From contig CAZGMS010000072.1 in assembly GCA_964526915.1 (NCBI GenBank), positions 7,341 through 71,340 on the forward strand: a stretch of DNA of 64,000 nucleotides, read 5' to 3'. Position 1 is the first letter of the stretch, and every line of letters starts with the position of its first letter. Origin of the DNA: an uncultured Nitrospirales bacterium. Its GTDB lineage: Bacteria > UBA10199 > JADGCS01. Under the pieces are notes generated by a model. The model was not told the origin of the DNA and made no database searches. It was given only the letters and a program-made list of their open reading frames with translations. Below are positions 4,547-64,000 of the stretch, piece by piece. Made by a program: the position numbers and the translations under genes.

Positions 4547-4591
4547 AATGATCAGTGCCTCAATTTTAGGATATTAGTCAAACATCAGCCA

Positions 4592-17215: not shown

Positions 17216-17226
17216 GTATTATTATT

Positions 17227-18183: not shown

Positions 18184-18198
18184 TGGAGGTGCCCTTTA

Positions 18199-19089: not shown

Positions 19090-19129
19090 TTTTTCATCCC
19101 CCTAATGGTTCATCCATCTGTTTTCTTGT

Positions 19130-20005: not shown

Positions 20006-20020
20006 CCTTTTTAGTTCTGT

Positions 20021-20551: not shown

Positions 20552-20593
20552 GGCATATTAGGCATCTTGAAAATACAGATTAAAGCACGGCTA

Positions 20594-42419: not shown

Positions 42420-42430
42420 TTTCCCACGTT

Positions 42431-43795
42431 TTATGTTGCTGTTAAGATATTTTCAAAACATTCCTTCCATCCTGGCCACCCCAAATCTGAAAACATTGTA
42501 TTATGAGAAAGAAGGGTAAAAATCCCCTGGTACTTTTTAACCTGCTCTTTTAACTTGCTAAGACCACCATGCACGACTTCCATATCACGCATACCCTGAT
42601 ATTTGTAAAATGCCCCATCCATTGCTACCAAGGGCAACTCTCTTAAGCGAAGTTTTTTTTGCGATAGGATATTGAAAACTGGGTAATCCTGACACACACC
42701 GCACCTGAACCCAGCCATCTCAGGGTATCCTAACGTGGAATCAACTGCCATCCCATTATCTTCCCAAATCTGCCACGTTGTGGGCACCTCAAATTTCAAA
42801 TAGTGCTGTCTCCCAGATTGAACGCCCTCCCAGCCCTGATTTGCCAAGACTTGATTCAATCTCTGCTTTTCGATTTTCCACTTGTTTCCATCATTACATG
42901 TATCATAGCCCGGGTGAAATCCAATCACATGTTCATTCTCCCTGATTATCCTCAAATTGTGCTCGGCAAACACGGTATCCAATCTATATCCCGAATCACG
43001 CCTGCTTTTGACAGCAGACATGAAATTAAATTGGATGGTCGCATCACATCGCCTTCCCATATCGACCAATTCAGAGTAAAGATCATAGGGATCCTTGTTG
43101 CCAAAATGTCTACAAGACAAACTGCCCACCATACTCTTTGAAGCCGCTCTCAGACTTTTATTAAGAAGAAGATCACCGCCTACTCTACGAATCAGACCCC
43201 AGACATCTTGGGGATAATAGGTCAATATATCCACATCAATACTGGGAGCCATACGATAACGACTGTGCTTTTTCTGTGCCTGCCCATCCAAATGATGAAT
43301 CATCCGAAACAACATTTGAGCATATTCATGCACTATGGGCCGTTCCAAGAAACCCTGTTTGACTGCAAGCGACTGATCTGCAGGAAATCGGCCATGAATA
43401 TCGCGAATGAGATTAACGTGTTCCTCCCACCTCGTCAGCATGAAAAAAGATGACGCAAAGACATCGACACCACAGATGATTCGGTCTGACGACACAGAAC
43501 ACTCATCAGTACCAAAAATAGTGGGCAAAGGAGCCTTATCAACAAACTGGTTATCAACAAATGAGGTGCGAGAAGGGATGTTGCGATTATCCAAATAGGT
43601 AACATCAGAACAAAACTGGTTGAAAAAGTTATCCCTCACTACAATGATTTTTCGATTTTCCAATACAATTTCATAATCCTTGATTGGTCTGGCACAGACA
43701 CAGACATCAATCCCCAATAATTCCCTAAAAAGAACCTCAATAACATATTCCCGTTCGGCTACATGGTTGTCCGGAATGTTGATAACAATACCCAT
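42431..43795 (-). CDS. Putative polysaccharide deacetylase-fold protein with an extra N-terminal domain
   Basis: 454 aa. C-terminal half has VIGFHPGYDT, GRQHYLKFEVP and VDSTLGYPEMAGFRCGV...LPLVAMDG. The pattern is shared with ORF 8403-9230. Confidence 0.4.
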   Translation of the reverse strand: MGIVINIPDNHVAEREYVIEVLFRELLGIDVCVCARPIKDYEIVLENRKIIVVRDNFFNQFCSDVTYLDNRNIPSRTSFVDNQFVDKAPLPTIFGTDECSVSSDRIICGVDVFASSFFMLTRWEEHVNLIRDIHGRFPADQSLAVKQGFLERPIVHEYAQMLFRMIHHLDGQAQKKHSRYRMAPSIDVDILTYYPQDVWGLIRRVGGDLLLNKSLRAASKSMVGSLSCRHFGNKDPYDLYSELVDMGRRCDATIQFNFMSAVKSRRDSGYRLDTVFAEHNLRIIRENEHVIGFHPGYDTCNDGNKWKIEKQRLNQVLANQGWEGVQSGRQHYLKFEVPTTWQIWEDNGMAVDSTLGYPEMAGFRCGVCQDYPVFNILSQKKLRLRELPLVAMDGAFYKYQGMRDMEVVHGGLSKLKEQVKKYQGIFTLLSHNTMFSDLGWPGWKECFENILTAT

Positions 43796-43796
43796 T

Positions 43797-44522
43797 CTAA
43801 ATTCTTTCTCTCCTAGAACCCGATAACCAACGACTTAGTAGTAACCGACTTTGTCTGGCTATTTTGATACAAGTTCTTCTTTTGATGGCCTTGATCAATT
43901 GTGATTTATCAATATCACTCATCAATGTTTTTTTTGATTTGATCATGACCATACCGCCCGTTTTCACTGCACTCAGAAACTCGCCGTGTTGATTCAAAAC
44001 AACAATGCAATTTTCCAACTCATTCAAAGAATGAGCATCACCCGCATAACACATACCCTTGCCGTGTTTTTTGGCCAAATCCATTGCCCGTATATTGTCG
44101 ACATTTCGACATCTTGCATTAAACACCTCAATCATATCCACATCTTCCGCAAGCTGATTGATATTTTTATGACCTACATACGGGTGTGGCAACAACAATA
44201 ACCCTCCTTGCTCCCGAACTTCTCGAACAAATGCAGCATATTTGCGAGACTCAATTTCTTTATGAATTCCCATGGCAATCACATCACCATATTCTGTTTG
44301 ATATTCGGCAGAAAGAGGCACTTCAATATTGAGATGATTTTCATTGCAATGCTTCTTGAGTGCCAGCGAACCTTGGATGCTGTCGTGATCCGTCAATACT
44401 AAGAAATCGAGTTTCTGCGCATTGGCCCAGCGAGCCAACCGGGGAATCGACATCACAGAATCATACGAATAGGCTGAATGACAATGAAAAATACCCTTAC
44501 GATTCATACTGGCCATGCACAC
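43797..44522 (-). CDS. PHP-domain metal-dependent phosphoesterase
   Basis: 241 aa. GIFHCHSAYSYDS, DFLVLTDHDS and LLLLPHPY give the His/Asp pattern of the PHP family. Confidence 0.75.
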   Translation of the reverse strand: MCMASMNRKGIFHCHSAYSYDSVMSIPRLARWANAQKLDFLVLTDHDSIQGSLALKKHCNENHLNIEVPLSAEYQTEYGDVIAMGIHKEIESRKYAAFVREVREQGGLLLLPHPYVGHKNINQLAEDVDMIEVFNARCRNVDNIRAMDLAKKHGKGMCYAGDAHSLNELENCIVVLNQHGEFLSAVKTGGMVMIKSKKTLMSDIDKSQLIKAIKRRTCIKIARQSRLLLSRWLSGSRRERI

Positions 44523-45648
44523 AATACTTCACAAATGTTTTGGCAAAGTGCCCTGCCATTTTTATAGTGGGGCGAATATCCGACAGTTGACAGTTATTTT
44601 TTACACGCAAACACAGAGTATCTTTGATCACCCCACACATGGCCTTTGGTCTGAGCATACCGTACATGATGTCGCCATTGAATGGCCAAGTGTACCTGAG
44701 TTTGGATTTTCTGCAAACATCGATCGCAGGTTGCTTACCCAAATGCAGATCCACCATCATTTGCGGGAAATTCACCCCCGCAGAAATGGCAAGCTCAATA
44801 GATCCCCAGAGTTTGGCGTTAATTTCCATCAAAAAGGGACGACCTGATTCATCGACCTTGAATTCGACCATGGCCAAACCATGCCACTGCAAAGCATCCA
44901 AAATTTGTTTTCCGTACTCTGCCACCAATGGATTGAAACCAGTTTCAGCCGCCACACTGCGGCCTCCGCTGGGTGGCATTTCACGAATTCTGCGGTGCTG
45001 AAATGTCACACAACATTTGCCATGATCATACAACGCAAAAAAACCACACCCGTATCCCTTTATGTATTCCTGTAACATCGGTAACAAAGACCCTTCCAAG
45101 TTGTGCTTTTCACACAGCGCATGATACTTGCCCAAAAGATCCCTGTGATGCTCAACATAATCGATCACGTTAACACCCGCTTCCTGCTTTCCCTTGATCA
45201 CAAGGGGGAATTTCAGGGTAGCTCCCAATACTGAGATTTCTTCCCTGTTAAGCGGGTAAAAGGTTTTGGGATAAGGAACACCTATCTTTTCAGCAAGCGC
45301 GTACGTTTTTTCTTTTGACATGGCAACATCGATCTTTGATGCTTCAGCAATCACAATGTCAGAACACAGCCTGATCTCATCCTGCAATTCACTCATGATA
45401 CTGTTGGCCTTGGCACCAACAGGCATGACCATGTCTATCTGATATTGTTTTAAAATATCCAGAAAGGTTTGGTTAAACTCCGGCAGTTCATATTTGGGGA
45501 CAATAATTTCATCAGCGCAATATTTTGACAACGCCGCCAATGAACCGGGCCTATGACTCATCACATAGACTGTGTGGCATTCCTTACCCAAAGCCCTCAC
45601 CACGCCGAGCGTGTGTGTGTAGTTTCCATCTGAAACCAATATTTTCAT
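44497..45648 (-). CDS. ATP-grasp ligase (second copy)
   Basis: MKILVSDGNYTHTLGVVRALG and LAMVEFKVDESGRPFLMEINAKLWGS. The Met at 45648 gives an ATGA overlap (tcat at 45645-45648). Confidence 0.75.
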   Translation of the reverse strand: MKILVSDGNYTHTLGVVRALGKECHTVYVMSHRPGSLAALSKYCADEIIVPKYELPEFNQTFLDILKQYQIDMVMPVGAKANSIMSELQDEIRLCSDIVIAEASKIDVAMSKEKTYALAEKIGVPYPKTFYPLNREEISVLGATLKFPLVIKGKQEAGVNVIDYVEHHRDLLGKYHALCEKHNLEGSLLPMLQEYIKGYGCGFFALYDHGKCCVTFQHRRIREMPPSGGRSVAAETGFNPLVAEYGKQILDALQWHGLAMVEFKVDESGRPFLMEINAKLWGSIELAISAGVNFPQMMVDLHLGKQPAIDVCRKSKLRYTWPFNGDIMYGMLRPKAMCGVIKDTLCLRVKNNCQLSDIRPTIKMAGHFAKTFVKYCVHGQYES

Positions 45649-46406
45649 TTGTGAAGAATAAGAAAATAAAATGCTGAACAACGTGGAATCGCAGTTGCCA
45701 AAAATCTGTCCAGCTTATTGAATAGTGCAAATAAGCCACAACGACCTAACACGCGCAACACAGTACTCCAACACAAAAACAGACAAGTGCCATTTGTTTC
45801 CATAATCTTGAAACCCGCATTGCTTACAAGATTTTCGATATCGTGTGCTGAAAACTGCCAATGACAGAATGATTCCGGAGACACCTCTTTGCGATGTAGC
45901 TGTTTTTCGCGTCTCCAATATAAACTATTTTTATTGGGCATGGAAAAAATGATCTTACCATCATTTTTTAGGACACGGCGCAACTCATCTAAAGCCTTGG
46001 GTCTGTTTTCCACATGTTCAATCACTTCACTGCATATGATCAAGTCAACACTATCGCTCTCCAAAGGAATTTCTGTCAAATCTGCTATGACAATTTCTAT
46101 TTTATCCAAGAGTTCTGGATACTTTTCAAAATTCTTTCTCATCCGCACCACTTCTTCCCTTGAAGATTCAAGGGCCACAACACGAACAGCCACTTTACTT
46201 GCCAAATAAGTATTTGGCCCTTTTCCTGCCCCCGCATCCAGAACTGTCCTGGCAGGATATGTTTTCAGATACTGATTGATCAATGTGACCCGTTGACGAT
46301 GTTGATAGCGCCAAACGGAAAACTGATCACCGTAATCATGAAAATCATCCATGAAAGGCAACGGATAGGCATTGGCAATATCGTCAGATTGTGCAACATT
46401 CCACAT
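45645..46406 (-). CDS. Class I SAM-dependent methyltransferase
   Basis: 253 aa. VLDAGAGKGPNT and LIICSEVIEHV. Confidence 0.8.
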   Translation of the reverse strand: MWNVAQSDDIANAYPLPFMDDFHDYGDQFSVWRYQHRQRVTLINQYLKTYPARTVLDAGAGKGPNTYLASKVAVRVVALESSREEVVRMRKNFEKYPELLDKIEIVIADLTEIPLESDSVDLIICSEVIEHVENRPKALDELRRVLKNDGKIIFSMPNKNSLYWRREKQLHRKEVSPESFCHWQFSAHDIENLVSNAGFKIMETNGTCLFLCWSTVLRVLGRCGLFALFNKLDRFLATAIPRCSAFYFLILHK

Positions 46407-51914: not shown

Positions 51915-53186
51915 TTAATGCAATTCATCTCTATAGTATTGGTCCAAAGTTTTTTGATATTCAATATACTGTCGGGTAAAAGCTTCGGGCTGATAATGGT
52001 CCCTCATTTGCGAACAACGCTTATTGTGCGAAAAAAAAGAAAAATGGTAAAAAAATCGGTTCACAAGCCCTCTGAAAAACAAATTCAGTGATACGCCGCA
52101 TTGCACAGATTTTTTTTCATCAAGATGCCGACTTATGTGTTCAGCAATAATTTTTGATGGGCTTTGATTTTGATTTCCAAAACAGGCTGTAATCAGCCTT
52201 TCTCTTTGCTCTCTCTTGGCTTCGAATTCTTTGATTGTTTTTGAAACAAACAACTCATCTAAATAATCCAGCAGTTGTTTGTTTGTTTGTGCAGAAATGG
52301 AAGACTCCCAAATTTCAACATATTCAGGATGATCCTGACATAGATGAATGGTTGTCTTGCCCTCCAACCACGCATCAACAGCCATTGTGGATTCATAAAC
52401 CAAAACAACATCTGCTAAGGCAATCAATTGATAAACGGGCATCTCATCATGAAGAATCAGCACATTATTGTATTGATCAAAATGATGAGAAATCTCCGTC
52501 TTTTCCTCATTTTCAGTAGCCGGATGGTATTTAAGAATCAAAAGTTTGTTGGGATACTGTTTTGCAACGGACTGCAAATAGTGTATGGTGGTTTCTTTTT
52601 GTTTGAGCAGGGCATCTCCCCGTACCCCTTGTTCATGTTGTCGTGCAACAATATCAAATGACCAACCTACATAAAAAATGATTCCATCGTATTGATCTCC
52701 AAGCAATTTACTACGATCAAACAAAACATTTTTAAAAATGTGGTATTTTTCGTGACCAGCACTACCCGAAACGCTCAGGATGTCCTTCAGATAAGGAAAC
52801 CGTTCCAAAGACCAGCGATACGAATCTTCATTCCATAGAAACCATTTGTCCACCGTAGGCTTTCGTTCACGATTATTACCCCAAAGATACAAGTCAGTTA
52901 ACTCTTTGCGAAATACTCCTTCTGCATGCAAGGCCACAGCATAAATACCGCGCTGTTGCGCATATTTTGTTACTTTGTAAATTGCATAGGCACCCGTACA
53001 ACAATTTGTTAGCAATACTTTCGGTTTCAACAAATCAATCGCTGTGTAATCAAAAATACTCCGCACTTCTACATGCAACTTGAATTTTTGACGTAACAAA
53101 TAGATGGTAGGAATCAGGGCTTGTACATCACGCCCGACCATCCCCCAGATCATCACCAACACATCACATTTGTTGATTTTTGCCAT
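51915..53186 (-). CDS. Hypothetical GT-B-like transferase (Capsule_synth/TagF-like C-terminal pattern)
   Basis: 423 aa. LLILKYHPATENE and DVVLVYESTMAVDAWLEGKTTI resemble the acceptor/donor motifs of KpsS/TagF-like GT-B enzymes. Weak, motif-only call. Confidence 0.35.
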   Translation of the reverse strand: MAKINKCDVLVMIWGMVGRDVQALIPTIYLLRQKFKLHVEVRSIFDYTAIDLLKPKVLLTNCCTGAYAIYKVTKYAQQRGIYAVALHAEGVFRKELTDLYLWGNNRERKPTVDKWFLWNEDSYRWSLERFPYLKDILSVSGSAGHEKYHIFKNVLFDRSKLLGDQYDGIIFYVGWSFDIVARQHEQGVRGDALLKQKETTIHYLQSVAKQYPNKLLILKYHPATENEEKTEISHHFDQYNNVLILHDEMPVYQLIALADVVLVYESTMAVDAWLEGKTTIHLCQDHPEYVEIWESSISAQTNKQLLDYLDELFVSKTIKEFEAKREQRERLITACFGNQNQSPSKIIAEHISRHLDEKKSVQCGVSLNLFFRGLVNRFFYHFSFFSHNKRCSQMRDHYQPEAFTRQYIEYQKTLDQYYRDELH

Positions 53187-53204: not shown

Positions 53205-54461
53205 TCACTTAGAATAGAAATGAGAAACCTTGAATAAGGCCTCTGCAATATCAGCAATGTCCTTTTCAGAATAGTTTTCGTGAATATTTAAATTGAAATG
53301 CGTATCAGTCACTTGTGTAATGTTATCAAATTTGAATACTGGTTGACGCTCACCATGATAATCTTTACACTGCCAAGGAAAACCACTTTTCCCAAACACA
53401 CTTTGATTTTTGAACCATGGATTTTCGCACGGAACATACCGATAAGTTTCTGTTACCGGCAACCCTTCGGCCTTGAGTGCCAAAGCAAATTCTTTTTTGG
53501 AACCATTTAGATTCTCAATGGGGACTTTCATGCGAAAAAACCAGAAGCTGGGTTCTACATCAACTTCAAATTGTCCAAAACACACAGAACCACAGCCTTG
53601 AAGTCTTTTATTAAGAGAATCTGCAAGCTGGCGTCTTTGCATGATGTGATAACTAAGTTTTTCCAGTTGAACAAACCCAATCGACGCCGGCAATTCACTT
53701 AAATTACAATTCAGACCAGCAACAGCATTGTGAACACCATCAATTTTACCTGTCTGATTAAAGGGTTTACCACGATCTGCAAATCGTTTTACTTTCCAAT
53801 ACAGTTCTTCATCTTTTGTATAGACGACCCCGCCCTGCCCCCCTGTGCAATGAAGCTTTGAAAACATTGTAGAAAATATTGCAATATCACCAAACGTCCC
53901 AACCTTTTGCCCTTGATACAAAGCACCATGAGATTGTGAACAATCTTCAATAACGTATAATCCATGTTTGTTAGCCACAGCCATCACAGGCTCCATATTC
54001 ACTGGTTCACCACCAATGTGTGCAACAATAATAGCCTTTACCCGCGGTGTGATCACACGCTCAATTTCTTCTGCGCACGTATTGTACGAATAAGTTGTGC
54101 TGTCTGCCATGATGGGGACACATCCTGCAAATAACACTGGCATCACTCCACCAGCATCAGTGATGGGTGGAACAATCACTTCGGATAACGCATCAAGTTC
54201 CAACGCTCCCAAAGCAACAAACAACGCATTTGTCCCTGAATTTACCCCATCGGCAAAGCCTCCACCCATCCACTCTGCAAAGGCTTTCTCGTAACGTTGC
54301 TCCCATTTCCCATTATAGCCAAATGCATCGCCCGATGTGATGGCTTCATCCAACACCTTAAGAACGACTTGTTTTTCCTTTTCAGTCATCAGATTCCTTT
54401 TGGGGAACGGCATTTTGCGGACAGGCTCACCACCATGAACAGCTAGTTTCATAATACTCAT
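53205..54461 (-). CDS. DegT/DnrJ/EryC1/StrS-family aminotransferase
   Basis: 418 aa. NSGTNALFVALGAL, VIEDCSQSHGALYQGQKVGTFG and FSKLHCTGGQGG. ATGA overlap with the upstream radical SAM gene. Confidence 0.85.
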   Translation of the reverse strand: MSIMKLAVHGGEPVRKMPFPKRNLMTEKEKQVVLKVLDEAITSGDAFGYNGKWEQRYEKAFAEWMGGGFADGVNSGTNALFVALGALELDALSEVIVPPITDAGGVMPVLFAGCVPIMADSTTYSYNTCAEEIERVITPRVKAIIVAHIGGEPVNMEPVMAVANKHGLYVIEDCSQSHGALYQGQKVGTFGDIAIFSTMFSKLHCTGGQGGVVYTKDEELYWKVKRFADRGKPFNQTGKIDGVHNAVAGLNCNLSELPASIGFVQLEKLSYHIMQRRQLADSLNKRLQGCGSVCFGQFEVDVEPSFWFFRMKVPIENLNGSKKEFALALKAEGLPVTETYRYVPCENPWFKNQSVFGKSGFPWQCKDYHGERQPVFKFDNITQVTDTHFNLNIHENYSEKDIADIAEALFKVSHFYSK

Positions 54462-55393
54462 ATTGATTTCTTTGAGTTGAAGTTATGTAGAACACTTTTT
54501 ATTTTCCAAAAAAATGGTACTTTTGGAAGGTTGCCATACCCAACATAATCACATACCCGACATAAATCGCTACAATTTCGATTTTGTCGAGACAGTTCTC
54601 TTCTCATTTTTTGAAACTTTGTCCCAAACCAGACTTCAAACAATGAAGCCTTGTTAAGATCTCCCATTTCATTCATATTATAAAAGTCATTGATACAAGA
54701 ACAAACCATTCCGCTAGGTTTAATATACATTATCTCATACACTTGATCACAGGGTGCTTGGCAGACCTCTTTATAAAATTGCTTTACATTCCCAGCGCGA
54801 CTCGTCCACGTTTCCTGATAGGTTCTATTGATATGTGTAATTTTCTTTACCAAACTATCATCCAATTGGGATAACATATTCAAGTTTCGCTCACAGGCCT
54901 TGTCATCATATGAATTTAAATATATATGATTCAAACCATCATGAAACAACTGAGAAACTCTGTGTGTTGTTAATAAATCACCATTTGTTGTAATAAATAT
55001 CCAAGCCCTGGGAAGTTTTTTTCGGGCATATTTTAAAAATTCATTAAATCGTTTATCGGTTAATGGCTCATTAATCTCATATAAGCTCAAAATCCCCGAA
55101 TATGAAATTGAAGCCAATTCATTAATAATACGTTTAAATAACTTCTCATTGATATTCTGCTTGACTGGCGACCTTTCCAGCCCATAATGACAAAAAGAAC
55201 ACTTTCGTGTGCACATATAATTGGTCTGAATTTTAATGTGCTTAAAAAGATCTTTGTCGGCTAATCCTTGTTTGCGCCTAAAAGACTGATAGGGATTCCG
55301 AATATTCCTAATATACCAATCTCTCAAAAAGACTTTCGTCCTGATACGTAAAGGAATATTATTTTTCCAATCATCACTCATAATAAGAAACAT
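54458..55393 (-). CDS. Radical SAM enzyme with Cys-rich SPASM/twitch-like C-terminus
   Basis: 311 aa. CX3CX2C in NYMCTRKCSFCHYG. C-terminal Cys cluster CQAPCDQ...VCSCIND...NCSDLCRVCDY. Confidence 0.8.
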   Translation of the reverse strand: MFLIMSDDWKNNIPLRIRTKVFLRDWYIRNIRNPYQSFRRKQGLADKDLFKHIKIQTNYMCTRKCSFCHYGLERSPVKQNINEKLFKRIINELASISYSGILSLYEINEPLTDKRFNEFLKYARKKLPRAWIFITTNGDLLTTHRVSQLFHDGLNHIYLNSYDDKACERNLNMLSQLDDSLVKKITHINRTYQETWTSRAGNVKQFYKEVCQAPCDQVYEIMYIKPSGMVCSCINDFYNMNEMGDLNKASLFEVWFGTKFQKMRRELSRQNRNCSDLCRVCDYVGYGNLPKVPFFWKIKSVLHNFNSKKSI

Positions 55394-55394
55394 T

Positions 55395-56645
55395 CTATCT
55401 CTTGATTACACTCGAAACCCAAAAATCATTGCCAAAATGATAATTATTGTTTTGTAAAAAAGAAACTTTTTGTGGAATATATTCGCTGGCTATCATAATA
55501 TACGGTTTAGAAGGAAACTCACTTCTATCCCGCAGTTGTTCTTGCAAATAACAACTTTTATTTAACAGTGTACATTTTTTTTCGGTCCGCTCACACTCTA
55601 TAAATCCAGAAACCTGAATACCACTTTTAACTAAGCGATCATAGAGAACAGTTGCCATTTTTTCTGTGCCCCATATCAACAAAGGTCTATCGGGATCATA
55701 AAAATCCATTTTAACATCCAAAATATCCATAATTTTCGGATAGGGTCGGTTGTTTATGAGATAGGGAATAGCCTGTTGCATACATTCTTTACAAAACGAC
55801 TGACATTTTTTTGCCTTCTTCATTTCCTCATAAGAGTAATCATAAAGATCACCAAAGGCATAACCCGACATCTCCTTTGTCATCATGCAACAGGTGAGCA
55901 GTCTGCTTTTCTCATCGATAAACAAAACCTCATGATAAGGACATGTGTATGATGGTGGCACTTGTTTTTTGACTTGCTCGGGATAATAGAATATCAGGTC
56001 CTGTGACAACTTTTTCAATTCATCATAGGGCATTTCATTTGCCAGATATGCCTTCAACCTCCTCAAATCGGCTATACCAGCGTATGTAGGAGAAACACAC
56101 AAATTCTGTTCCTTGGCAAAGGCCAGCATATCTGGTATCTCATCAATATTAAATTGATAGACATGATATCTGATTTCTGCTTTTCCACGAAAACCACAAC
56201 GCCGATAATTATCCAGCATCTGAACAATATTATCTTTTATTTTATGAAAACTGAATCCATGTATTCTGTCATAGGAGTTTTGAGAAAAACCTGACATGGA
56301 AAAAACCAAAGCCCTTAAATTTCTTAAAGCCTGTTCATTTTCAAAATACAGTGGGCGTGAGGCATTAGTGCTCACAATGTATTCGTGACCTTCATCATTT
56401 AAAAATGCTGCTATCTCTCCAAATTGTGGATTCAACATTGGTTCACCCCAATTGTACAAGAAAAAGTAGGCATCAGCAGTGATGACATTATTTTTTTTTA
56501 GATAAAAAACAGCTTTTTTAAATTCATCACAAGTAATATACTGCTTTGATGTATTGCTATTATCATGAGATTCAATCCCTGTCGCACACCAGGGGCAGAG
56601 GGCATTACATTTACCTGATATTTCAAAAACAACATGATTATACAT
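55395..56645 (-). CDS. Radical SAM enzyme (possible auxiliary-cluster domain)
   Basis: 416 aa. CX3CX2C in EISGKCNALCPWCATG. Later Cys groups YTCPYHE...LLTCCMM...KKCQSFCKECMQ. Confidence 0.75.
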   Translation of the reverse strand: MYNHVVFEISGKCNALCPWCATGIESHDNSNTSKQYITCDEFKKAVFYLKKNNVITADAYFFLYNWGEPMLNPQFGEIAAFLNDEGHEYIVSTNASRPLYFENEQALRNLRALVFSMSGFSQNSYDRIHGFSFHKIKDNIVQMLDNYRRCGFRGKAEIRYHVYQFNIDEIPDMLAFAKEQNLCVSPTYAGIADLRRLKAYLANEMPYDELKKLSQDLIFYYPEQVKKQVPPSYTCPYHEVLFIDEKSRLLTCCMMTKEMSGYAFGDLYDYSYEEMKKAKKCQSFCKECMQQAIPYLINNRPYPKIMDILDVKMDFYDPDRPLLIWGTEKMATVLYDRLVKSGIQVSGFIECERTEKKCTLLNKSCYLQEQLRDRSEFPSKPYIMIASEYIPQKVSFLQNNNYHFGNDFWVSSVIKR

Positions 56646-56667
56646 GGTAGCTTCCTCCTATGATGAT

Positions 56668-57489
56668 TTATCTCACCTTTCTCATCCGGGCCATGGCACA
56701 TCCATTTGACTGAGACAAGTTACTGGCAGATACATTTGATAATTTTTCAAATCCCGAAACTTCTTCCCAAAATTCGTGCTCGGTAAATTGGAAATATCTT
56801 TCTTCAACCAATTCAAAATCCTTATGCCTGATGATGTTCATCCAACTCTCTTGCTCATACTCCCACTGGACACAATAGTAGCCAAGACTATCCTGTATGA
56901 CAACAGGTCCGCCCTTACCCATAGGAACCGTGATAAATAATTCTCCCTGCTTTTTAAGGATTTGACTGGTCTTATCCATAACAAGTCTATCTGTATGGGG
57001 CGCGCGATCTGTACACACGTCTTGAATATTTTTCTTTCTGACAAATACGCTTTTGTCATCACCCTGGGACGAGACATCATAACCAATGTGTTCTATCACA
57101 GATATACAGGTAACCACGTCAAAATTATTTTTTGGCAATTGATAATATCGATAATCACCACAATATTGATTCAGAGCCATCACTGAGGGCCACCACTCTT
57201 GCGGATATCTGGATTTAACGGCATCAAGTTTCACAATATCTATGAAGTGCAAATCAAGCCCCAATATTTCTTTTGTAGCCAACAAAGTCCCCATATAGTC
57301 CAAACTGGATAACGCTGTGCCAATATCCAGCAACCGACAGCCCTGAAAATCTACCAGATGTGAGGTTAACCAAGGGACTTCTATGCATCTGGCTGAATGT
57401 GACTGTCTGATGTCTGTTTTCCCCCAGCACTGCTCTCGTCGTATGATGGCCACGCAATAATCTAATATTCGCTTTGTCGTTGTGTCCAC
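56668..57489 (-). CDS. Methyltransferase-fold protein (class I SAM-MTase-like)
   Basis: 273 aa. RLLDIGTALSSLDY (motif I-like) and DVVTCISVIEHIG (post-II-like). Confidence 0.5.
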   Translation of the reverse strand: MDTTTKRILDYCVAIIRREQCWGKTDIRQSHSARCIEVPWLTSHLVDFQGCRLLDIGTALSSLDYMGTLLATKEILGLDLHFIDIVKLDAVKSRYPQEWWPSVMALNQYCGDYRYYQLPKNNFDVVTCISVIEHIGYDVSSQGDDKSVFVRKKNIQDVCTDRAPHTDRLVMDKTSQILKKQGELFITVPMGKGGPVVIQDSLGYYCVQWEYEQESWMNIIRHKDFELVEERYFQFTEHEFWEEVSGFEKLSNVSASNLSQSNGCAMARMRKVR

Positions 57490-57518
57490 AGTTTACCTCT
57501 CCACTCTGATAGGGTTAA

Positions 57519-59147
57519 TCATTGAGAATAGCTTTCCATATCCACATGAAGTGTTTCCAAATAATAACGCCATTGAAACGAACCCTTTTCCAAGACCTTC
57601 TTCGCCCTTTGTACCAATTGTTGACAATCTTCTGTCAGGTTTCGAGTTTTCATGATTTGAGCAAGAGCCAATAGAGCAAATACATGGTCTGGCACCATAT
57701 CCAATACATATCGAAAATCGCGCTCTGCCTGTGCCAAAGATTCTTTTGTGTTCTGTTTCAGATTTCGATTGTTGATAAAATTATTTTTGAGGTTGGCCAT
57801 GTAACTTAAGTCACCAAGTTGCTTACTCGAATAATCAATGTGATCAAACTCCTGGGCAAAATAAAACTCTCCCGCCCCCTCGCTAAAACCATCTATCAGC
57901 CGCTGTTCAATACAGTCATCAAAGAGAGCTGCCCCGGGAAGAGGCTTAAAACAATAAAATCCCTTCCAGTCCGTATCGAGTGTTTCCGCAAAAGCCAGGG
58001 TGTTCTTAACACTCTTGAGATCCTCGAAGGGAAAACCGGTAATGAAAAAGGCATTTATAAATGCTGACCCGTTTTTCCTGATCAGTTTGACCACATTTAG
58101 TGTTTCTTCAACCGTGAGAGGCTTACGAATCTTCTTCAGTATTTCATTGGATCCAGACTCCGCCGCCAAATTAAAAAACGCAATCTTGCTGGCATACATT
58201 TTTTTTATTATCCGCTCATCATTGAGTGTGCGAATGGACAAGCCACCACTGGACAGCCAACTGACATCCAGTGTAGCAAGGGCATCCAGCAACTGTTCAA
58301 ACCATTTTTTGTCGACACTGATATTCTCATCATTAAAGATGATAATATTTACGTCGTAATTGTCTTTGAGGTATTGAATTTCATATACGATATTTTCTAC
58401 GTGACGTTTGCGCCATCTTCTACTCCAGAAACTGGGAGATGTACAAAAGGTGCATGCATTGGGACAGCCACGAGAAGCTGTAATCGATGCAGGTCTCCAC
58501 TCATGCTTATCCTTCAAACGGTACAACAAATTGCGACCTTCCCGAAAATAATATTTGAAATGAGTGTCTTCCCAGGGCAGTCGTTTGACATCACAATATC
58601 CGTCCCAGAATTTCTTACGTGGATTACGAATCACCTGATTCCCTTCGCGATGAACAATGCCTTCTATGTCACTCATCTGCCCGTTTGAATTCATAGCATC
58701 AATGAGATCAGACAAACCCAATTCACCTTCCGACAAGATGATATAGTCAACCAACTCATCTTCCATACATTTGGCTGTGAGATGATGAGGATAATGCCCG
58801 CCAAAAACTAGGACGATTTTCGGGTTAATCTTTTTTATCAACGAGGCCATTTTGTGAAAAACAGGTATGCCCTGATAATACAATGTGGCCATGGCTATCA
58901 TATCGGGCTGATATTCTAAAATGTACCTCTTCAGGATATCCTCAAGGGAGTCTCCTGTTAAGAATTTCATTTCAATATTGAGATCGACAAACAGGACACC
59001 AACATCCTGACGTTTCTTGATATAATCATACACGTACAGCAAGCCCAGTGGAGGCTCAAAATAGGCATATCCTGATTGTCTTCCCAATTTTAATACGGAA
59101 GGATCCGGCGGATTCAGAAACAAGATTTTATTGATAATTTTATTCAT
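57519..59147 (-). CDS. B12-binding (class B) radical SAM enzyme with a helical-repeat C-terminal tail
   Basis: 542 aa. N-terminal cobalamin-binding-type domain (ILFLNPP...LGLLYVYDYIKK) and cluster motif TASRGCPNACTFCTSP. The C-terminal ~90 aa look TPR-like (LAQAERDFRYVLDMVPDHVFALLALAQIM). Confidence 0.8.
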   Translation of the reverse strand: MNKIINKILFLNPPDPSVLKLGRQSGYAYFEPPLGLLYVYDYIKKRQDVGVLFVDLNIEMKFLTGDSLEDILKRYILEYQPDMIAMATLYYQGIPVFHKMASLIKKINPKIVLVFGGHYPHHLTAKCMEDELVDYIILSEGELGLSDLIDAMNSNGQMSDIEGIVHREGNQVIRNPRKKFWDGYCDVKRLPWEDTHFKYYFREGRNLLYRLKDKHEWRPASITASRGCPNACTFCTSPSFWSRRWRKRHVENIVYEIQYLKDNYDVNIIIFNDENISVDKKWFEQLLDALATLDVSWLSSGGLSIRTLNDERIIKKMYASKIAFFNLAAESGSNEILKKIRKPLTVEETLNVVKLIRKNGSAFINAFFITGFPFEDLKSVKNTLAFAETLDTDWKGFYCFKPLPGAALFDDCIEQRLIDGFSEGAGEFYFAQEFDHIDYSSKQLGDLSYMANLKNNFINNRNLKQNTKESLAQAERDFRYVLDMVPDHVFALLALAQIMKTRNLTEDCQQLVQRAKKVLEKGSFQWRYYLETLHVDMESYSQ

Positions 59148-59187
59148 CTTTTAACCACAATATTTATCAGTTATCCTGACAAGGAAA

Positions 59188-60594
59188 TCAGACAACCTGT
59201 GTTTTGAGATAATTTTTTAGCAAGACAATTTTCGACAATCTTTTTTCATACTCAAAACTGCGCACCAATAAATGCAAGTTCTTCAAGAAGAGAAATATTT
59301 TGTTGGGTGGCAATTTTAACAGCCAGAAAATCATTCTCTCAAAATAGGGATATTTAATGAGATAAAAGAACAATTTATCCAGATTAATAAATATTTTTTT
59401 CTCTTTAGACATGAGAAGTGAATCATTAAAATTCAATAAATGAATTTCTTCCAGTGTAGGTATCTTTTTGATATAACCCTTTTCAAAAGCGTAATGAGTC
59501 ACTCTGAGGCCAGGATAAAAAACCAGTACATTGGATGAATAGGAATCAGCCTTAATTTCACGGCACAGTCTTATGGTGTCCATGGCTTCTTCAAAGGTTT
59601 CACCTGGCCAGCCAAAAATGATATCAATACCAATCCGAATACCCTGCTCTTGAATCAGGCGACAGGCCCTAATAATCTGTTCGTTTGTGGTGAGGCGACC
59701 GGCGACTTCATGTCGCACACGATCATTTCCCGATTGAATACCAAAAGTGATCCGGTCGCATCCTGCTTTTTTTAAAAGCACGGCGGTTTCCGCATCAATA
59801 TTTTCAACCCGCAAATTACATAGAAACCCTGGCAGTCTGGCTTGCGCATAATCACGTAAAAACTCCTTAAACCACCTCTTATCCGCGTTGAGTGTTCCAT
59901 CCTGAAAATGAACCCATTCTATTCCATAAGTATTTTTTACGTATTTTATTTCCTCCAGCGTTTCCTGAATGGAACGCAATCGCCAGTATTTCTTTTTGAA
60001 ATGACGTGATAATTCTTTGTTGTAACAAAATGTACAACCATAGGGACAACCACGAGAGGCAATGAAGATTTTCACGGGACTTTCTTGAAGAACTTTATAT
60101 TTATAATACACGTCCCGATTGGGGAAACAATTTTCACTCACATCCACAAGATCACATTCTTCATTCTTATGTGCCTGGGCATGCGCATCTAAATAACACA
60201 GTCCCTTTATGGAATCTAACCCTTCACCCCTTTGGTGTTTTAAAATAAATTCTGGTAAGGATTTTTCTCCATCACCTCTAAAAACATAATCCACTGCTGG
60301 CCTGCTGATAATTTCTGGATATATCAGGGCAAAGGGCCCGCCCACCAACGTTACAGACTCTGGTAATACGGTTTTGATTTTCTTCAAATATTCAAAGGCA
60401 AAATTCTCTTCGCCAATAAATAAACTGTAGACAACATAATCGGGTTTGTAGGCTACAATTTTGACATAGAAATCTTTTTCTAGGTCATGAATAAAAACTT
60501 CACAGTGAATGTCTTTTTCCTTTAAACTCCCTGCCAAAAAATGAACACTGAGTTTTTCGTAGGCTTCTTTTTGTACGAAAGCGACTTTTACCAT
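59188..60594 (-). CDS. B12-binding (class B) radical SAM enzyme
   Basis: 468 aa. N-terminal B12-type domain (VAFVQKE...DYVVYSLF) and cluster motif IASRGCPYGCTFCYNKE. Confidence 0.8.
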   Translation of the reverse strand: MVKVAFVQKEAYEKLSVHFLAGSLKEKDIHCEVFIHDLEKDFYVKIVAYKPDYVVYSLFIGEENFAFEYLKKIKTVLPESVTLVGGPFALIYPEIISRPAVDYVFRGDGEKSLPEFILKHQRGEGLDSIKGLCYLDAHAQAHKNEECDLVDVSENCFPNRDVYYKYKVLQESPVKIFIASRGCPYGCTFCYNKELSRHFKKKYWRLRSIQETLEEIKYVKNTYGIEWVHFQDGTLNADKRWFKEFLRDYAQARLPGFLCNLRVENIDAETAVLLKKAGCDRITFGIQSGNDRVRHEVAGRLTTNEQIIRACRLIQEQGIRIGIDIIFGWPGETFEEAMDTIRLCREIKADSYSSNVLVFYPGLRVTHYAFEKGYIKKIPTLEEIHLLNFNDSLLMSKEKKIFINLDKLFFYLIKYPYFERMIFWLLKLPPNKIFLFLKNLHLLVRSFEYEKRLSKIVLLKNYLKTQVV

Positions 60595-60605: not shown

Positions 60606-61508
60606 TTATCTTGTTTGATGTGGTACCGGTCTGTAAGCATCCAGTTTACGTGTCCCCCAGAGACTTGATACCACCAAACCACATAACCGTACCCAACCAT
60701 GAAGCACAAAATAAGGCACATATTTTACTTGATATTTCAATCCACAATAGACAGCTCTTTTGATAGGGTATGTATAAATCAAATGTTGTATCACGGCCCA
60801 GCGTCTCTCAGGATGTGCCATGATGAACTTGTAGTCCCCCGCCCCATAAGAAAGCCAACGACTAACCAATTCACCAAAATTATCTATGTATTTACGGTAT
60901 GTTTTACCTGTCCCCACGACAAAATGGCCGCCCTGTCTTTTCAGTCGATAGGCCAGATCAGAATCTTCAGAAGCGGAACCATAACGAACATCATTGTTTT
61001 TCATGGCTTCTATGAGGGCCCGTTTTTGATATAAAGCGGGCCGACCAACCATTTGAATATTTTGTTCTTTCTGCTTCTTATCCAAATCACGAATCACCTG
61101 CATGCTCATCCAAAAAGCCTGTTCCCAGTATTTTGATTTTTTTCCTGTTTTTTCCGATAAATCACAATGCCTGGCCTGTGTCGCCACGGCACCTGATCTT
61201 TCCAAATCCAGCATCAGGTCACGCAAACACCACCGATCCAACTGATCATCAGCATCAACAATGGCAACGTAAGAAGCCTCAGAAGAGGCGGCATAAACTC
61301 CTGTATTTCGTTGTATAACCAAACCTTTCTCTGATTCAATGACCTTAATAGCAGTAAACTCTCTGGCCAATAAGGTGGTGCGATCGACTGAACCACCATC
61401 GACTACAATGATCTCTAATGGGTCATTATCCAAACAAGACTGAATACAAGCAGAAATATTCTTTTCTTCGTTAACAGTGCGAATAATAACCGTAATCGGT
61501 AGAGACAT
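60606..61508 (-). CDS. Glycosyltransferase family 2
   Basis: 300 aa. ITVIIRTVNEEKNI, IIVVDGGSVDRT and AIVDADDQL (DXD). Confidence 0.8.
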   Translation of the reverse strand: MSLPITVIIRTVNEEKNISACIQSCLDNDPLEIIVVDGGSVDRTTLLAREFTAIKVIESEKGLVIQRNTGVYAASSEASYVAIVDADDQLDRWCLRDLMLDLERSGAVATQARHCDLSEKTGKKSKYWEQAFWMSMQVIRDLDKKQKEQNIQMVGRPALYQKRALIEAMKNNDVRYGSASEDSDLAYRLKRQGGHFVVGTGKTYRKYIDNFGELVSRWLSYGAGDYKFIMAHPERRWAVIQHLIYTYPIKRAVYCGLKYQVKYVPYFVLHGWVRLCGLVVSSLWGTRKLDAYRPVPHQTR

Positions 61509-62044
61509 TATGAATGGCTCCCGTGATCAGACAATATCGATAATATCCGCGAATCCCACCACCTGCCATCATAAAAATAATTATCTCTGAGCAACCCATC
61601 CAGTTTAAATCCCAACTGAGTATACAATTCATATTTCTTCACATCGAACTCGTATATTTCTGTCCAGATTTTGTGTAGATTTAACTCACCAAAGGCATAC
61701 TGGAACAGAACTTGGCAAGCATCTTCTGCAAAACCGGCATCATCAATATAGGAATTTTGCCAGCCAATGTAGAGCGATAAATCGGCATGACGATGCACCC
61801 AATTGATGTAACACAAACCACACACTCCAACCAGTTCATTGGTCTCAAGATCACGGACAGCAAACATCAAGGTCCGATCATCTGCCAACACTTTTTCGCG
61901 GTACCATTTATCCTGACTTTCGCGGTCCAACTCACGGTATTCCCTAAAATGCTTTCGAAACTCTTCGTTATTGCGCCACAGACGCATGGTCTCTAGATCC
62001 TCTTTTTCAACGGTGGTCAACGCCACTTTTTTTCCCTTTAACAT
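61508..62044 (-). CDS. GNAT N-acetyltransferase (PseH/RimL-like)
   Basis: 178 aa. DLETMRLWRNNEEFRKHF N-terminus and an acetyl-CoA region typical of PseH-like amino-sugar acetyltransferases. Adjacent to the NeuB-like gene. Confidence 0.7.
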   Translation of the reverse strand: MLKGKKVALTTVEKEDLETMRLWRNNEEFRKHFREYRELDRESQDKWYREKVLADDRTLMFAVRDLETNELVGVCGLCYINWVHRHADLSLYIGWQNSYIDDAGFAEDACQVLFQYAFGELNLHKIWTEIYEFDVKKYELYTQLGFKLDGLLRDNYFYDGRWWDSRILSILSDHGSHS

Positions 62045-63111
62045 AACTCAATATCTCCCACCATGACGGCCTCATCCTCCGCGACATCCCTTTTCAGCAC
62101 TTTGCCAATAAGTGTGTGGACGGCAAACGGTTGAACCCCTCCCTGCGTAAATGGTCGCAGTGGAAACAAATTTTCTTTCGTCAACACATGTCCTTTTTTC
62201 AGATCGCGCACATATCTTAGACCCCGTCTTTGCAAACAAACAGTATCATTCTCATTGGCCTCAACCCTTTTAACACCATCACCCAAGGCCAAATAGACTT
62301 CTTGAGCACGACAAACCATTTCCCTCCACGATTTGGGATTCATGGCAAACCTGTGATCGGGCCCTTCGCGCGAGTTATCATCAGTAAAATGTTTTTCAAA
62401 AACCACAGCTCCCAAAGCGACAGCACCCAACACAGTCGCGTGACCATGAGTGTGATCCGAAAGCCCCAACAAGACATTGGGATATCTTTTTTTGTAATCT
62501 TTCAAAACATTCAAATTGATGCATTTGAAATTTTCAGGACTTGCTGTATAATTTGTATTGCACTGCATGAGCACAATATCCTGAGTGTGCTTAAATAAAC
62601 AATGCATGGCTCTTTCCACATCTTCAATTGTGGAAGCCCCTGTCGCCAGCATCACAGGTTTACCTTTTTTGGCTATATACTCAATCATTTCCAACCAGGT
62701 TATATCTCCAGAACCGATCTTATAGACTGAAACATAGGGATCCACATGATCGACCGTTTCAAAGTCATAGGGACTTGTAAAATATTCTATCCCCACTTCA
62801 TCGCATTTATGTTTTAATTTTGCTGTCCATTCCCGGGGTAGACTCGCGTCTTGATACACCTCATAAACTGGCTTTTTCCATTTTGCTTGATGAGATAATT
62901 GACCACCCAATGACTCAAAACCATTCCGACTCACAATTTTTCTCGCAACAAAATTTTGAAATTTGGCCGCATCAGCCCCAGCTTCTTTGGCCAATTCAAT
63001 CAATTTGAGTGCCCGTTGCAAATCACCATCATGGTTCGCCGCAATATCGGCAATAAAATACAGATTTTCTCCTTCTCCAATTTTTCTTTTGCCTACAGTG
63101 ATCGTTTTCAT
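62038..63111 (-). CDS. Nonulosonic acid synthase (NeuB/PseI/LegI family) with C-terminal SAF domain
   Basis: 357 aa. YFIADIAANHDGDL, GADAAKFQNF and VFEKHFTDD. Which nonulosonate is made cannot be told from sequence by eye. Confidence 0.85.
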   Translation of the reverse strand: MKTITVGKRKIGEGENLYFIADIAANHDGDLQRALKLIELAKEAGADAAKFQNFVARKIVSRNGFESLGGQLSHQAKWKKPVYEVYQDASLPREWTAKLKHKCDEVGIEYFTSPYDFETVDHVDPYVSVYKIGSGDITWLEMIEYIAKKGKPVMLATGASTIEDVERAMHCLFKHTQDIVLMQCNTNYTASPENFKCINLNVLKDYKKRYPNVLLGLSDHTHGHATVLGAVALGAVVFEKHFTDDNSREGPDHRFAMNPKSWREMVCRAQEVYLALGDGVKRVEANENDTVCLQRRGLRYVRDLKKGHVLTKENLFPLRPFTQGGVQPFAVHTLIGKVLKRDVAEDEAVMVGDIELC

Positions 63112-64000
63112 GCAAATACCTTCCTGTAATCCTCAACAAGCGCCTTGATCCCTTCCTCAATAACGGGCACTGAGGTCACAAGAGACGTGAATTTGCTAAC
63201 ATCGAGCGTGGTATCACGAGGCCTTTTTGCCTTAAACAGCATGTGTTCACTGGTGGTCGAACGAATAAGAGATGTTGGCCTCATGCACTCACGGGCCAAC
63301 TTGATCAGAAAATCGTACTTGCTAAAATGATCCTGACTACCCACATGCAAAACTCCACGACAATCAGAAGACAATAACTGTTTAATGGTCCCAGCCAACT
63401 GCCTAATGTATAGGGCATTAAACATCACATCAGTGAACCCTCCAATGGATTCCCCTTTTAATAAATGCGTCAAAGCCCATTCCGCCAAGGATCCTCCGGG
63501 AGGGTTTTTGAAACCATAAATGTTTGTTCTTAAGACCAGTGGTTTTCGTGATTCCTGCAAAACCACTTGCTCCCCTGCCAACTTGGTGCGGGCGTAAACA
63601 TTGAGAGGCTTTGGCTCATCAGTTTCAGAATAATTACCCTGCTCCCCATCAAACACGGAATCTGTGGAGATGTAAACAAAGCTTGTTTGGGGACAATGAT
63701 GCGCCAACGTATATGTTATTCCCTCATGGACATCACCAGCAACCTGCGGGTGTGTTTCGCAATATTCAAGATCAACCAAAGCCAAACAGTGGATGATGAT
63801 GTCCGGTTCTATTCGATCCAAATACATTTTTAGCTGGTCGCTGTCTGTGAGATCAAAATGTTTTTGATGGGTCGCGTCTGCCCACAACGTCTGCAGGCGA
63901 TCACACGCATAGACTTCATAGTTCAAATCTTCCTGTAATATGGGCCCAACCGCGTTGGCCAGCATCCCGGCAGAACCCGTGATCAAAATGCGTTTTACAC
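63108..64000 (-). CDS. RmlD-substrate-binding-type NAD(P)-dependent sugar reductase/epimerase; 5' end at or beyond the window edge
   Basis: At least 292 aa. The frame stays open to the window edge (VKRILITGSAGMLANAVG Rossmann motif). YARTKLAGEQ (YxxxK). Confidence 0.7.
   Translation of the reverse strand, partial: VKRILITGSAGMLANAVGPILQEDLNYEVYACDRLQTLWADATHQKHFDLTDSDQLKMYLDRIEPDIIIHCLALVDLEYCETHPQVAGDVHEGITYTLAHHCPQTSFVYISTDSVFDGEQGNYSETDEPKPLNVYARTKLAGEQVVLQESRKPLVLRTNIYGFKNPPGGSLAEWALTHLLKGESIGGFTDVMFNALYIRQLAGTIKQLLSSDCRGVLHVGSQDHFSKYDFLIKLARECMRPTSLIRSTTSEHMLFKAKRPRDTTLDVSKFTSLVTSVPVIEEGIKALVEDYRKVFA

Follow-up and report, generated by a model that had tools for sequence, protein, structure and literature searches.

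Four radical SAM genes beside a nonulosonate-type pathway in a glycan gene array of an uncultured Nitrospirales bacterium

A block of radical SAM genes among glycan genes

We analysed a 64,000-nucleotide stretch of DNA from an uncultured Nitrospirales bacterium (assembly GCA_964526915.1, contig CAZGMS010000072.1), referred to here as the window, and followed up a block of four radical SAM genes that lies in it beside genes of a nonulosonic acid (NulO)-type sugar pathway. The 64-kb window is a single minus-strand array of glycan genes. In the order of transcription, the block starts with radical SAM gene A (60594-59188), encoding 468 residues with a B12-binding domain, a radical SAM domain and the motif ASRGCPYGCTFC, and continues with B (59147-57519), encoding a class B radical SAM protein of 542 residues with the motif ASRGCPNACTFC and a conserved helical C-terminal tail. 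A gene for a 273-residue protein with a class-I SAM-methyltransferase fold, which we call MT273 (57489-56668), separates these from C (56645-55395; 416 residues, motif SGKCNALCPWC), predicted to be twitch-type with a Rossmann-like C-terminal domain, and D (55393-54458; 311 residues, motifs MCTRKCSFC and NCSDLCRVCDY), predicted to be a BtrN-family twitch protein. All five genes are on the minus strand, with gaps of 40, 29, 22 and 1 nt, and D overlaps the next gene, DegT, by 4 nt, an arrangement of translational coupling.

The same strand carries, upstream of A, genes for an RmlD-like short-chain dehydrogenase/reductase (SDR)-type reductase (63108-64000; 299 residues in the identical contigs L087, its true start being just past the window edge), a NeuB-family nonulosonate synthase with a SAF domain (62038-63111), a PseH-like GNAT N-acyltransferase (61508-62044) and a glycosyltransferase family 2 (GT2)-fold protein (60606-61508; Pfam Glycos_transf_2). 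Downstream of D lie genes for a DegT-family pyridoxal phosphate (PLP)-dependent aminotransferase (53205-54461, minus strand) and, as the first gene after it, a BFO_1060-family glycosyltransferase (51915-53186, minus strand), followed by methyltransferase, Wzx flippase and AsnB-type amidotransferase genes. Gaps are 40 nt or less all the way from the edge of the window (RmlD-like gene) to the BFO_1060-type gene (51915), so this run is compatible with one transcription unit; a scan of the window for promoters and terminators returned counts at chance level. A sequence-only reading of this DNA had reported four consecutive radical SAM genes with these motifs and spacers, preceded by a GT2, a PseH-like GNAT and a NeuB-like synthase and followed by DegT. 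Genes, motifs and spacers were all as claimed, and Pfam bore out the neighbours.

The Radical_SAM family (PF04055, cut-off 29.5 bits) was found above its cut-off in all four proteins (A 91, B 73, C 34 and D 29.6 bits). D, borderline by Pfam, is securely assigned to the superfamily by its homology to BtrN. Each of the four contains a CX3CX2C motif that is invariant among its orthologues, as the earlier reading would have it for cluster-binding cysteines.

Recurrence of the block in related loci

Related loci, numbered here with the prefix L, were searched for with C, D, B and MT273 as separate anchors. All four anchors led to loci with NeuB and a cytidylyltransferase of the type of cytidine monophosphate (CMP)-sugar synthetases (CTP_transf_3), so the proposed tie between the block and NeuB-type sugar genes was recovered four times independently; the loci reached from C, D and MT273 usually also had a HemL-like aminotransferase, a GT2 and a PseB-like dehydratase.

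Full-length close orthologues of C were found in Desulfarculus baarsii DSM 2075 (L004; 1146623-1167867 of CP002085), two metagenome contigs (L006/L007), a Desulfovibrionaceae metagenome-assembled genome (L008) and L090. NeuB is present in L004, L008 and L090 (53-61% identity), and the shorter L007 ends without it. CTP_transf_3, the HemL-like aminotransferase, GT2 and MT273 occur in each of L004, L007, L008 and L090, joined in L004, L008 and L090 by a PseB-like dehydratase and an aldo-keto reductase. D. baarsii DSM 2075, which is in culture, has C, B and MT273 together with this core. The B anchor gave fifteen orthologous metagenome loci; ten had usable upstream sequence, and CTP_transf_3 was upstream in all ten, formed a DegT, CTP_transf_3, B triad (with CTP_transf_3 directly adjacent) in eight, and was accompanied by NeuB within ~10 kb in six. 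Among 49 homologues of D, every context examined was a NeuB/CTP_transf_3 module, and the three long ones (L088, L089 and L090) had the same core, with NeuB fragmented in L089. The MT273 anchor led to a version with D and C (L165, Pseudodesulfovibrio) and to two with MT273 and the core and no radical SAM gene (L166, Candidatus Kaiserbacteria, and L167); the NeuB (65%) and GNAT (50%) of L167 are among the closest to those of the window.

The add-ons are distributed unevenly. C is in the window, L004, L007, L008, L090 and L165; D is in the window, L008, L088, L089, L090 and L165; A and B occur together in the window, L007, L088, L089, L092 and L101, and B occurs alone in L004 and the triad loci. 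Because orthologues of each gene recur together in unrelated genomes, the gene arrangement is more than chance. A survey for the same four-gene arrangement beside neuB/pseI homologues elsewhere had been suggested as a check. The pairing of radical SAM genes with NeuB does recur, while the full set of four was seen in the window only, among the loci compared. Nor do the four genes make up one fixed unit, as had been supposed: they are separable, interchangeable additions (C; D; A with B) to a core pathway, since core versions lacking them exist (L166 and L167). Close orthologues of A to D were seen only with NeuB and/or CTP_transf_3, a linkage found in more than 15 loci from several phyla. Anaerobes (Desulfobacterota, Clostridia, anammox bacteria and methanogens) make up most of the host lineages, which fits the oxygen-independent chemistry claimed for the block.

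These contexts also bear on whether the four proteins could be maturases of peptides made on ribosomes and then altered post-translationally (RiPPs) that merely sit beside sugar genes. The gaps of at most 40 nt leave no space for a precursor gene, family and fold searches gave no match of the PqqD or RiPP recognition element type, the top peptide-maturase models scored 16-33 bits against cut-offs of 300-625, D is a full-length homologue of BtrN with four auxiliary cysteines rather than seven, and the orthologous loci are all made of sugar genes. We therefore rejected this explanation, to which we give almost no credence, and the linkage of the block to sugars rather than peptides, as first read from the sequence, stood.

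MT273 gave weak Pfam matches only and no match in a profile search against solved structures. It has the hallmarks of a class-I methyltransferase, with conserved acidic SAM-binding positions and an atypical motif I (LDIGxSLAS), in agreement with the methyltransferase-fold protein claimed at this place. A fixed pair of C and MT273 was true of the first seven loci and failed with the MT273 anchor, which brought up MT273 with the core in L166 and L167; MT273 belongs to the core pathway, not to the radical SAM set. L166 also encodes (10936-13350) an 804-residue fusion of an FAD amine-oxidase/GLF-like domain with a NeuB+SAF synthase; its neighbours are the MT273 homologue, CTP_transf_3, GT2 and a Capsule_synth-type transferase, with no radical SAM gene.

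A divergent nonulosonate-type core

The NeuB-family synthase matched Pfam NeuB (PF03102, 248 bits) and SAF (PF08666, 36 bits), and scored 274 bits with the NCBIfam model NeuB (cut-off 400) and 245 bits with PseI (cut-off 340). Against the PDB it aligned over its full length with PseI (160 bits), NeuB (155 bits) and SpsE (144 bits). By these scores it is a divergent member of the family, equally distant from PseI and NeuB. Orthologues 53-65% identical are present in L004, L008, L090, L165 and L167. The GNAT matched Pfam Acetyltransf_3/4 and NCBIfam PseH (63 bits, cut-off 93), with orthologues in L089 (63%) and L167 (50%). The RmlD-like protein scored 158 bits with NCBIfam rmlD (cut-off 224), and the identical gene in L086/L087 matched Pfam RmlD_sub_bind/Epimerase; a counterpart with 31-34% identity directly precedes NeuB in L004, L008, L090, L165 and L167.

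The GT2 (Pfam Glycos_transf_2, 82 bits) has a homologue with 21-43% identity in 10 of the 12 tabulated module loci (L004, L007, L008, L088, L089, L090, L092 and L165-L167). No PseG-, NeuC- or LegG-type hydrolase was seen accompanying the core, and the GT2 could act as a transferase or else take the place of the absent nucleotide-sugar hydrolase of the PseG/NeuC type. A role as an ArnC-like polyprenyl-phosphate transferase, hinted at by the formyltransferase, DegT and GT2 genes of L007, found no support among the curated matches.

No CMP-sugar synthetase gene lies within the 64-kb window. Identical metagenome contigs (L087) extend it upstream; the gene order there is CTP_transf_3 (253 residues), a HemL-like class III aminotransferase (436 residues), the RmlD-like gene and NeuB. 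The D. baarsii dehydratase scored 483 bits with PseB, above the cut-off of 408. At the other end of the run, the BFO_1060-type protein (53186-51915) scored 224.8 bits with NF046086, above the cut-off of 200. BFO_1060 is the Tannerella forsythia 92A2 orthologue of Tanf_01245/TFUB4_00887, and deletion of these genes led to loss of the terminal pseudaminic acid (Pse) or legionaminic acid (Leg) derivative from the O-glycan (PMC5420450). By family membership, the BFO_1060-type protein of the window is probably the transferase for the finished NulO derivative.

Radical SAM proteins A and B

In both A and B, a B12-binding domain (PF02310, cut-off 32.1 bits) lies N-terminal to the radical SAM core (A 37.2 and B 53 bits). 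With both domains above cut-off, the assignment of A and B to the B12 class is upheld. A tetratricopeptide repeat (TPR)-like tail had been described for B. Its sequence is conserved among orthologues, and the TPR match is weak (E 0.004-0.03).

Class B families were matched by A and B at levels well short of the curated cut-offs, which are 251-600 bits for the best matches. For A these were TIGR04013 (121 bits, cut-off 251), PhpK (106), HpnJ (102) and AprD4 (55), and for B the Sden_1168 P-methyltransferase (145 bits, cut-off 575), BchE (141) and HpnJ (109). Neither protein reached the cut-off of any named class B equivalog (PhpK, Sden_1168, BchE, HpnJ, HpnR, AprD4, TIGR04014 MgmA-type and others). 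The closest solved relative of both is MgmA: A matched MgmA (9ccb, 2e-12), OxsB (4e-11) and AprD4 (1e-9), and B matched MgmA (6.5e-14) and TokK (2.6e-6). Orthologues of A with 50-56% identity (L007, L088, L092, L101 and L102) keep C183/187/190 invariant, and orthologues of B with at least 46% identity (L004, L007, L088 and L091-L104) keep C228/232/235 invariant.

These similarities leave two kinds of chemistry to weigh. MgmA, the best PDB match of both proteins, is a C-methylase, B matches a P-methylase family best in NCBIfam, and L167, which has no radical SAM gene, carries a gene for a TylCIII-type sugar C-methyltransferase near the A/B position. On the other hand, the scores of HpnJ, BchE, OxsB and AprD4 are comparable to those of the methylase families, and the substrates of HpnJ, OxsB and AprD4 are sugar-like. 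AprD4 has a B12-binding domain yet is not a methylase, and we know of no universal sequence motif for cobalamin binding and methyl transfer in class B radical SAM enzymes. We find it doubtful, but worth keeping in view, that A and B are not methyltransferases and instead rearrange, ring-contract or deoxygenate the sugar, in a cobalamin-dependent or a cobalamin-independent, AprD4-like manner. An Rfam scan of the window gave no match, cobalamin riboswitches included, which is not evidence either way on the use of cobalamin.

The L167 gene (5937-7205; Methyltransf_13/14) lies between the GNAT and GT2 genes and hints, if weakly, at C-methyl branches as a feature of this sugar family.

Radical SAM protein D and its partner gene

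D matched BtrN (4m7t) with an E value of 7e-24 over nearly the full length (D residues 47-285 on BtrN 22-259). The radical SAM cysteines are aligned, and C215, C233, C278 and C281 of D align with the auxiliary-cluster cysteines of BtrN. In an alignment of 23 homologues, C61/65/68 and C215/233/278/281 are the sole invariant cysteines. Although Pfam SPASM scored 36 bits with D, neither D nor C shows the seven-cysteine SPASM pattern (CX9-15GX4C...CX2CX5CX3C...C). Of the SPASM/twitch-like label given to D before, the twitch part therefore holds, through the four auxiliary cysteines and the homology to BtrN, and the SPASM part does not: with four invariant auxiliary cysteines alone, D is best classed as a twitch radical SAM enzyme of the BtrN type, and we rejected a full SPASM enzyme.

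BtrN is the twitch radical SAM dehydrogenase of 2-deoxy-scyllo-inosamine in butirosin biosynthesis, where BtrS is a DegT/StrS-family aminotransferase. With this precedent and the translational coupling of D to DegT, a conversion of a secondary alcohol to a ketone and then to an amine is a natural proposal, and from the BtrN homology and the coupled aminotransferase D is a probable secondary-alcohol dehydrogenase. The DegT protein itself scored 230 bits in Pfam and fell below the NCBIfam cut-offs of the LegC family (152 bits) and PseC (149 bits). Its orthologues (41-42% identity) occur in the D-containing loci L008, L090 and L165, where they do not adjoin D. A fixed pair of D and DegT holds only in part, as a gene for a GFO/IDH/MocA oxidoreductase directly follows D in L088, L089 and L100. 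In these three loci, the ketone may instead be re-reduced, giving an epimerisation.

The BtrN-like D with DegT mirrors BtrN/BtrS, and A is similar to AprD4. The block might thus make a separate aminocyclitol or aminoglycoside-like unit in the manner of butirosin and stand beside the NulO genes by coincidence. We consider this highly improbable: no 2-deoxy-scyllo-inosose or other cyclitol synthase was found among the scanned window genes or the called genes of related loci, and the linkage to NeuB and CTP_transf_3 spans the loci and phyla given above. Because D lies in a NeuB/CMP-synthetase operon without a cyclitol synthase, its substrate would have to be a sugar or nucleotide-sugar, not an aminocyclitol.

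Radical SAM protein C founds an unnamed family

In a 22-member alignment of the C family, C13/17/20 and C235, C252, C285 and C288 are invariant. Residues ~315-416 of C form a Rossmann-like domain of nucleotide-binding type, which the sequence-only reading had not spotted; in a fold search it resembled the nucleotide-sugar-binding N-terminal domains of PglD and WbpM. Desulfobacterota-type members of the family have the domain at the C-terminus and Firmicutes members at the N-terminus, and this change of position marks it as a likely mobile functional partner of the radical SAM part. Some relatives are embedded in proteins of 600-1275 residues. A sequence search of C against solved structures returned nothing informative (DesII, E 0.028), and a fold search gave class-level neighbours only. 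At E<=1e-30 the family comprises 211 clusters among 1.84 billion representatives, and by its sequence C appears to be the founder of a small, unnamed twitch-type family.

One distant C-family protein, with 37% identity, in Clostridium tertium (L044, 101-16221), lies inside a flagellin glycosylation island without NeuB; the gene order is FliD, flagellin, a 1314-residue GT2/TPR protein, GT2/methyltransferase, radical SAM, ATP-grasp, pyruvyl transferase, DegT and flagellin. Further distant members stand beside flagellin genes in L016, L028, L030, L032 and L036.

Proposed tailoring of a CMP-linked nonulosonate

We propose, with a probability of roughly 60%, that the block encodes accessory, oxygen-independent tailoring enzymes plugged into a NulO-type pathway and acting on a CMP-linked NulO-type sugar. 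The core would consist of a PseB-type dehydratase, the HemL-like aminotransferase, the RmlD-like reductase, GNAT, GT2, the NeuB-like synthase, the cytidylyltransferase and MT273, with the cytidylyltransferase and HemL-like aminotransferase supplied from just upstream of the window, and would yield a CMP-activated nine-carbon 3-deoxy-2-ulosonic acid. The radical SAM enzymes would remodel this sugar, most likely while it is nucleotide-linked. D would abstract a hydrogen atom at a secondary carbinol and pass an electron to its auxiliary cluster to leave a ketone, which the coupled DegT aminotransferase would turn into an amine by the logic of BtrN and BtrS. C might grip the nucleotide handle through its Rossmann-like tail and perform a second radical step, of unspecified type. 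A and B would use cobalamin for C-methylation, or carry out a skeletal rearrangement or deoxygenation. The BFO_1060-type NulO transferase would then attach the finished product, and the adjacent Wzx would flip it.

Several features suggest that the radical SAM enzymes act on a nucleotide-activated sugar. The B gene adjoins the cytidylyltransferase gene, C has a tail of nucleotide-binding type, and a single curated profile, TIGR04321 ('spiro-SPASM'), spans both activities: the cytidylyltransferase matches its positions 20-225 and D and C match positions 232-332. In L089 (1943-3991), moreover, a 682-residue CTP_transf_3::Aminotran_3 fusion joins the cytidylyltransferase to the HemL-like aminotransferase, which suggests that these two enzymes act on the same or consecutive intermediates.

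An earlier point of action is also conceivable, with the radical SAM enzymes working before the NeuB condensation on a uridine diphosphate (UDP)-hexose precursor, or on the N-acyl substituent, and leaving the nine-carbon skeleton and the CMP-sugar untouched. The Rossmann-like tail of C resembles UDP-sugar-binding domains, distant C members are found together with DegT, ATP-grasp and pyruvyl transferase genes in flagellin glycan islands that lack NeuB, and the window is rich in enzymes that handle acyl groups or amino acids (AsnB, ATP-grasp and FemAB-like). Against it, B orthologues directly follow the CMP-synthetase gene in eight loci, TIGR04321 covers both the cytidylyltransferase and the SPASM-radical SAM part in one profile, and the close orthologues of A to D are found only alongside NeuB and/or CTP_transf_3. 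On balance we judge it unlikely.

Some of our observations count against tailoring of a CMP-linked NulO. The substrate, the order of the steps and all of the reactions are ones that we infer from families, conserved cysteines and gene linkage. The contigs of this organism end at the cytidylyltransferase, and the PseB step is unseen there. The core chemistry is not a canonical Pse, Leg or neuraminic acid (Neu) route, because PseI (245 bits, cut-off 340), PseH (63, cut-off 93), PseC (149, cut-off 424) and PseF (28, cut-off 206) are all below cut-off and PseG and NeuC are missing; a HemL-like aminotransferase, an RmlD-like reductase and a GT2 are instead its constant members. Methylation by A and B is only a possibility, since both are below all cut-offs and the families closest to them include cyclases, ring-contracting enzymes and dehydratases as well as methylases. 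D has different partners in different loci, so ketone-to-amine conversion is only one possible outcome. Finally, the wider C family is not NulO-specific, given that distant homologues (30-40% identity) lie in flagellin glycosylation islands without NeuB, as in C. tertium, and C could act on a hexose precursor.

The general form of the original proposal, tailoring of a nonulosonic sugar, thus stood, with its details corrected as to the methylase role of A and B, the twitch nature of D and C, the Rossmann-like tail of C, the add-on character of the radical SAM genes and the place of MT273 in the core. That the outcome is a heavily modified and possibly new monosaccharide is something that we infer. 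More tentatively still, A to D may belong to a widespread, undescribed NulO branch of anaerobes in which they alter the CMP-activated sugar at its carbon skeleton or its functional groups. The resulting nonulosonates, with C-methyl branches, an extended chain, additional amination or deoxygenation, would lie outside the known monosaccharides.

Other features of the window

The window probably holds more than one glycan pathway, as a bacillosamine-type set is present (1442-7042, minus strand), consisting of a PglF/WbpM-like dehydratase (628 residues), DegT, a PglD-like acetyltransferase (PglD_N) and a PglC-like initiating transferase (Bac_transf). A Wzz chain-length regulator gene lies at 3419-4546. 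Between a second Wzx gene (11869-13338) and a WecA-like transferase gene (21825-22901) is an organic-acid-type module (13513-21736, minus strand) with genes for an ATP-grasp protein, a thiamine pyrophosphate (TPP) enzyme (N and C domains), MmgE/PrpD, an aldo-keto reductase, a 296-residue protein without a Pfam match, the alpha and beta subunits of a class-I fumarase and a C-C_Bond_Lyase TIM barrel; this module may serve to make an uncommon substituent of the acyl or acid kind. A further cluster, with uncommon decorating genes (38129-45681, minus strand), encodes a Ter-type ATP-grasp protein, a PHP-domain protein, DUF7033, a glycosyltransferase family 4 protein (GT4), a truncated-looking DegT, a FemAB-like transferase and a polysaccharide deacetylase, which suggests amino-acid or peptide substituents on a sugar. 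The last downstream gene (131-1276, minus strand), for an AAA_14/DUF4143 ATPase, is the sole gene of the window that is not sugar-related.

Significance

Nonulosonic acids (sialic, pseudaminic and legionaminic acid) decorate flagella, S-layers, capsules and lipopolysaccharide, and shape immune and phage recognition. To our knowledge, all known NulO routes and modifications are NAD-, PLP-, acyl-CoA- or simple SAM-dependent. A full-text literature search found no relevant report that connects nonulosonic, pseudaminic or legionaminic acid, or flagellin glycosylation, with radical SAM. The only trace of such genes in the literature searched is a listing from Campylobacter fetus of phase-variable, uncharacterised 'MoaA/NifB/PqqE/SkfB' radical SAM genes with methyltransferase, short-chain dehydrogenase and formyltransferase genes (PMC6321876). 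The individual proteins fall into known superfamilies, and it is the combination of radical SAM tailoring with a NulO pathway, the C family and the core of the HemL/GT2 type that appear to be undescribed.

If our proposal is correct, A to D would be the first of their superfamily in the metabolism of sialic-acid-like sugars, and C would represent a new functional class of radical enzymes for sugar nucleotides. New substrates would be gained for the class B and twitch families, whose precedents are in several cases limited to aminoglycosides or peptides, and strict anaerobes would be seen to perform oxidations and C-C chemistry on sugars without oxygen. Remodelling of a CMP-nonulosonate would also widen the structural range of bacterial surface sugars. 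D. baarsii DSM 2075, as a cultured carrier, makes the question directly testable.

Comparison with known systems

D shares with BtrN nearly its full length, the CX3CX2C motif and the four auxiliary cysteines, and its coupling to a DegT-family aminotransferase recalls BtrN/BtrS. It differs in its context, a NeuB/CMP-synthetase glycan operon without a cyclitol synthase, and in having GFO/IDH/MocA next to it in other loci. A and B have the same domain order as the class B methylases (MgmA, TokK, PhpK, GenK and Fom3) and non-methylases (BchE, HpnJ, OxsB and AprD4), but score below all of the curated cut-offs. B has a conserved helical tail of its own, and the two genes are tied to CMP-sugar synthetase genes, a context that was not found for class B enzymes in the literature searched. 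Compared with DesII, BlsE and viperin, radical SAM enzymes with sugar nucleotides or nucleosides as substrates, C has no sequence-level membership; unlike DesII and viperin, it has a four-cysteine auxiliary cluster, and it carries an extra Rossmann-like domain.

The uncharacterised TIGR04321 spiro-SPASM proteins combine a cytidylyltransferase-like N-terminus with a radical SAM/SPASM part. The same two activities are encoded here by separate genes, whose products score far below the 250-bit cut-off and hence are not members. With the Pse and Leg pathways and the T. forsythia Pse5Am7Gra locus, our system shares a PseB-type dehydratase (in D. baarsii), the PseH-like GNAT, the NeuB/PseI-like synthase, the CTP_transf_3 activating enzyme and, directly downstream, a BFO_1060-family transferase. 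Its core goes beyond them with an RmlD-like reductase, a HemL-like class III aminotransferase, a GT2 and an aldo-keto reductase, to which between one and four radical SAM enzymes are joined.

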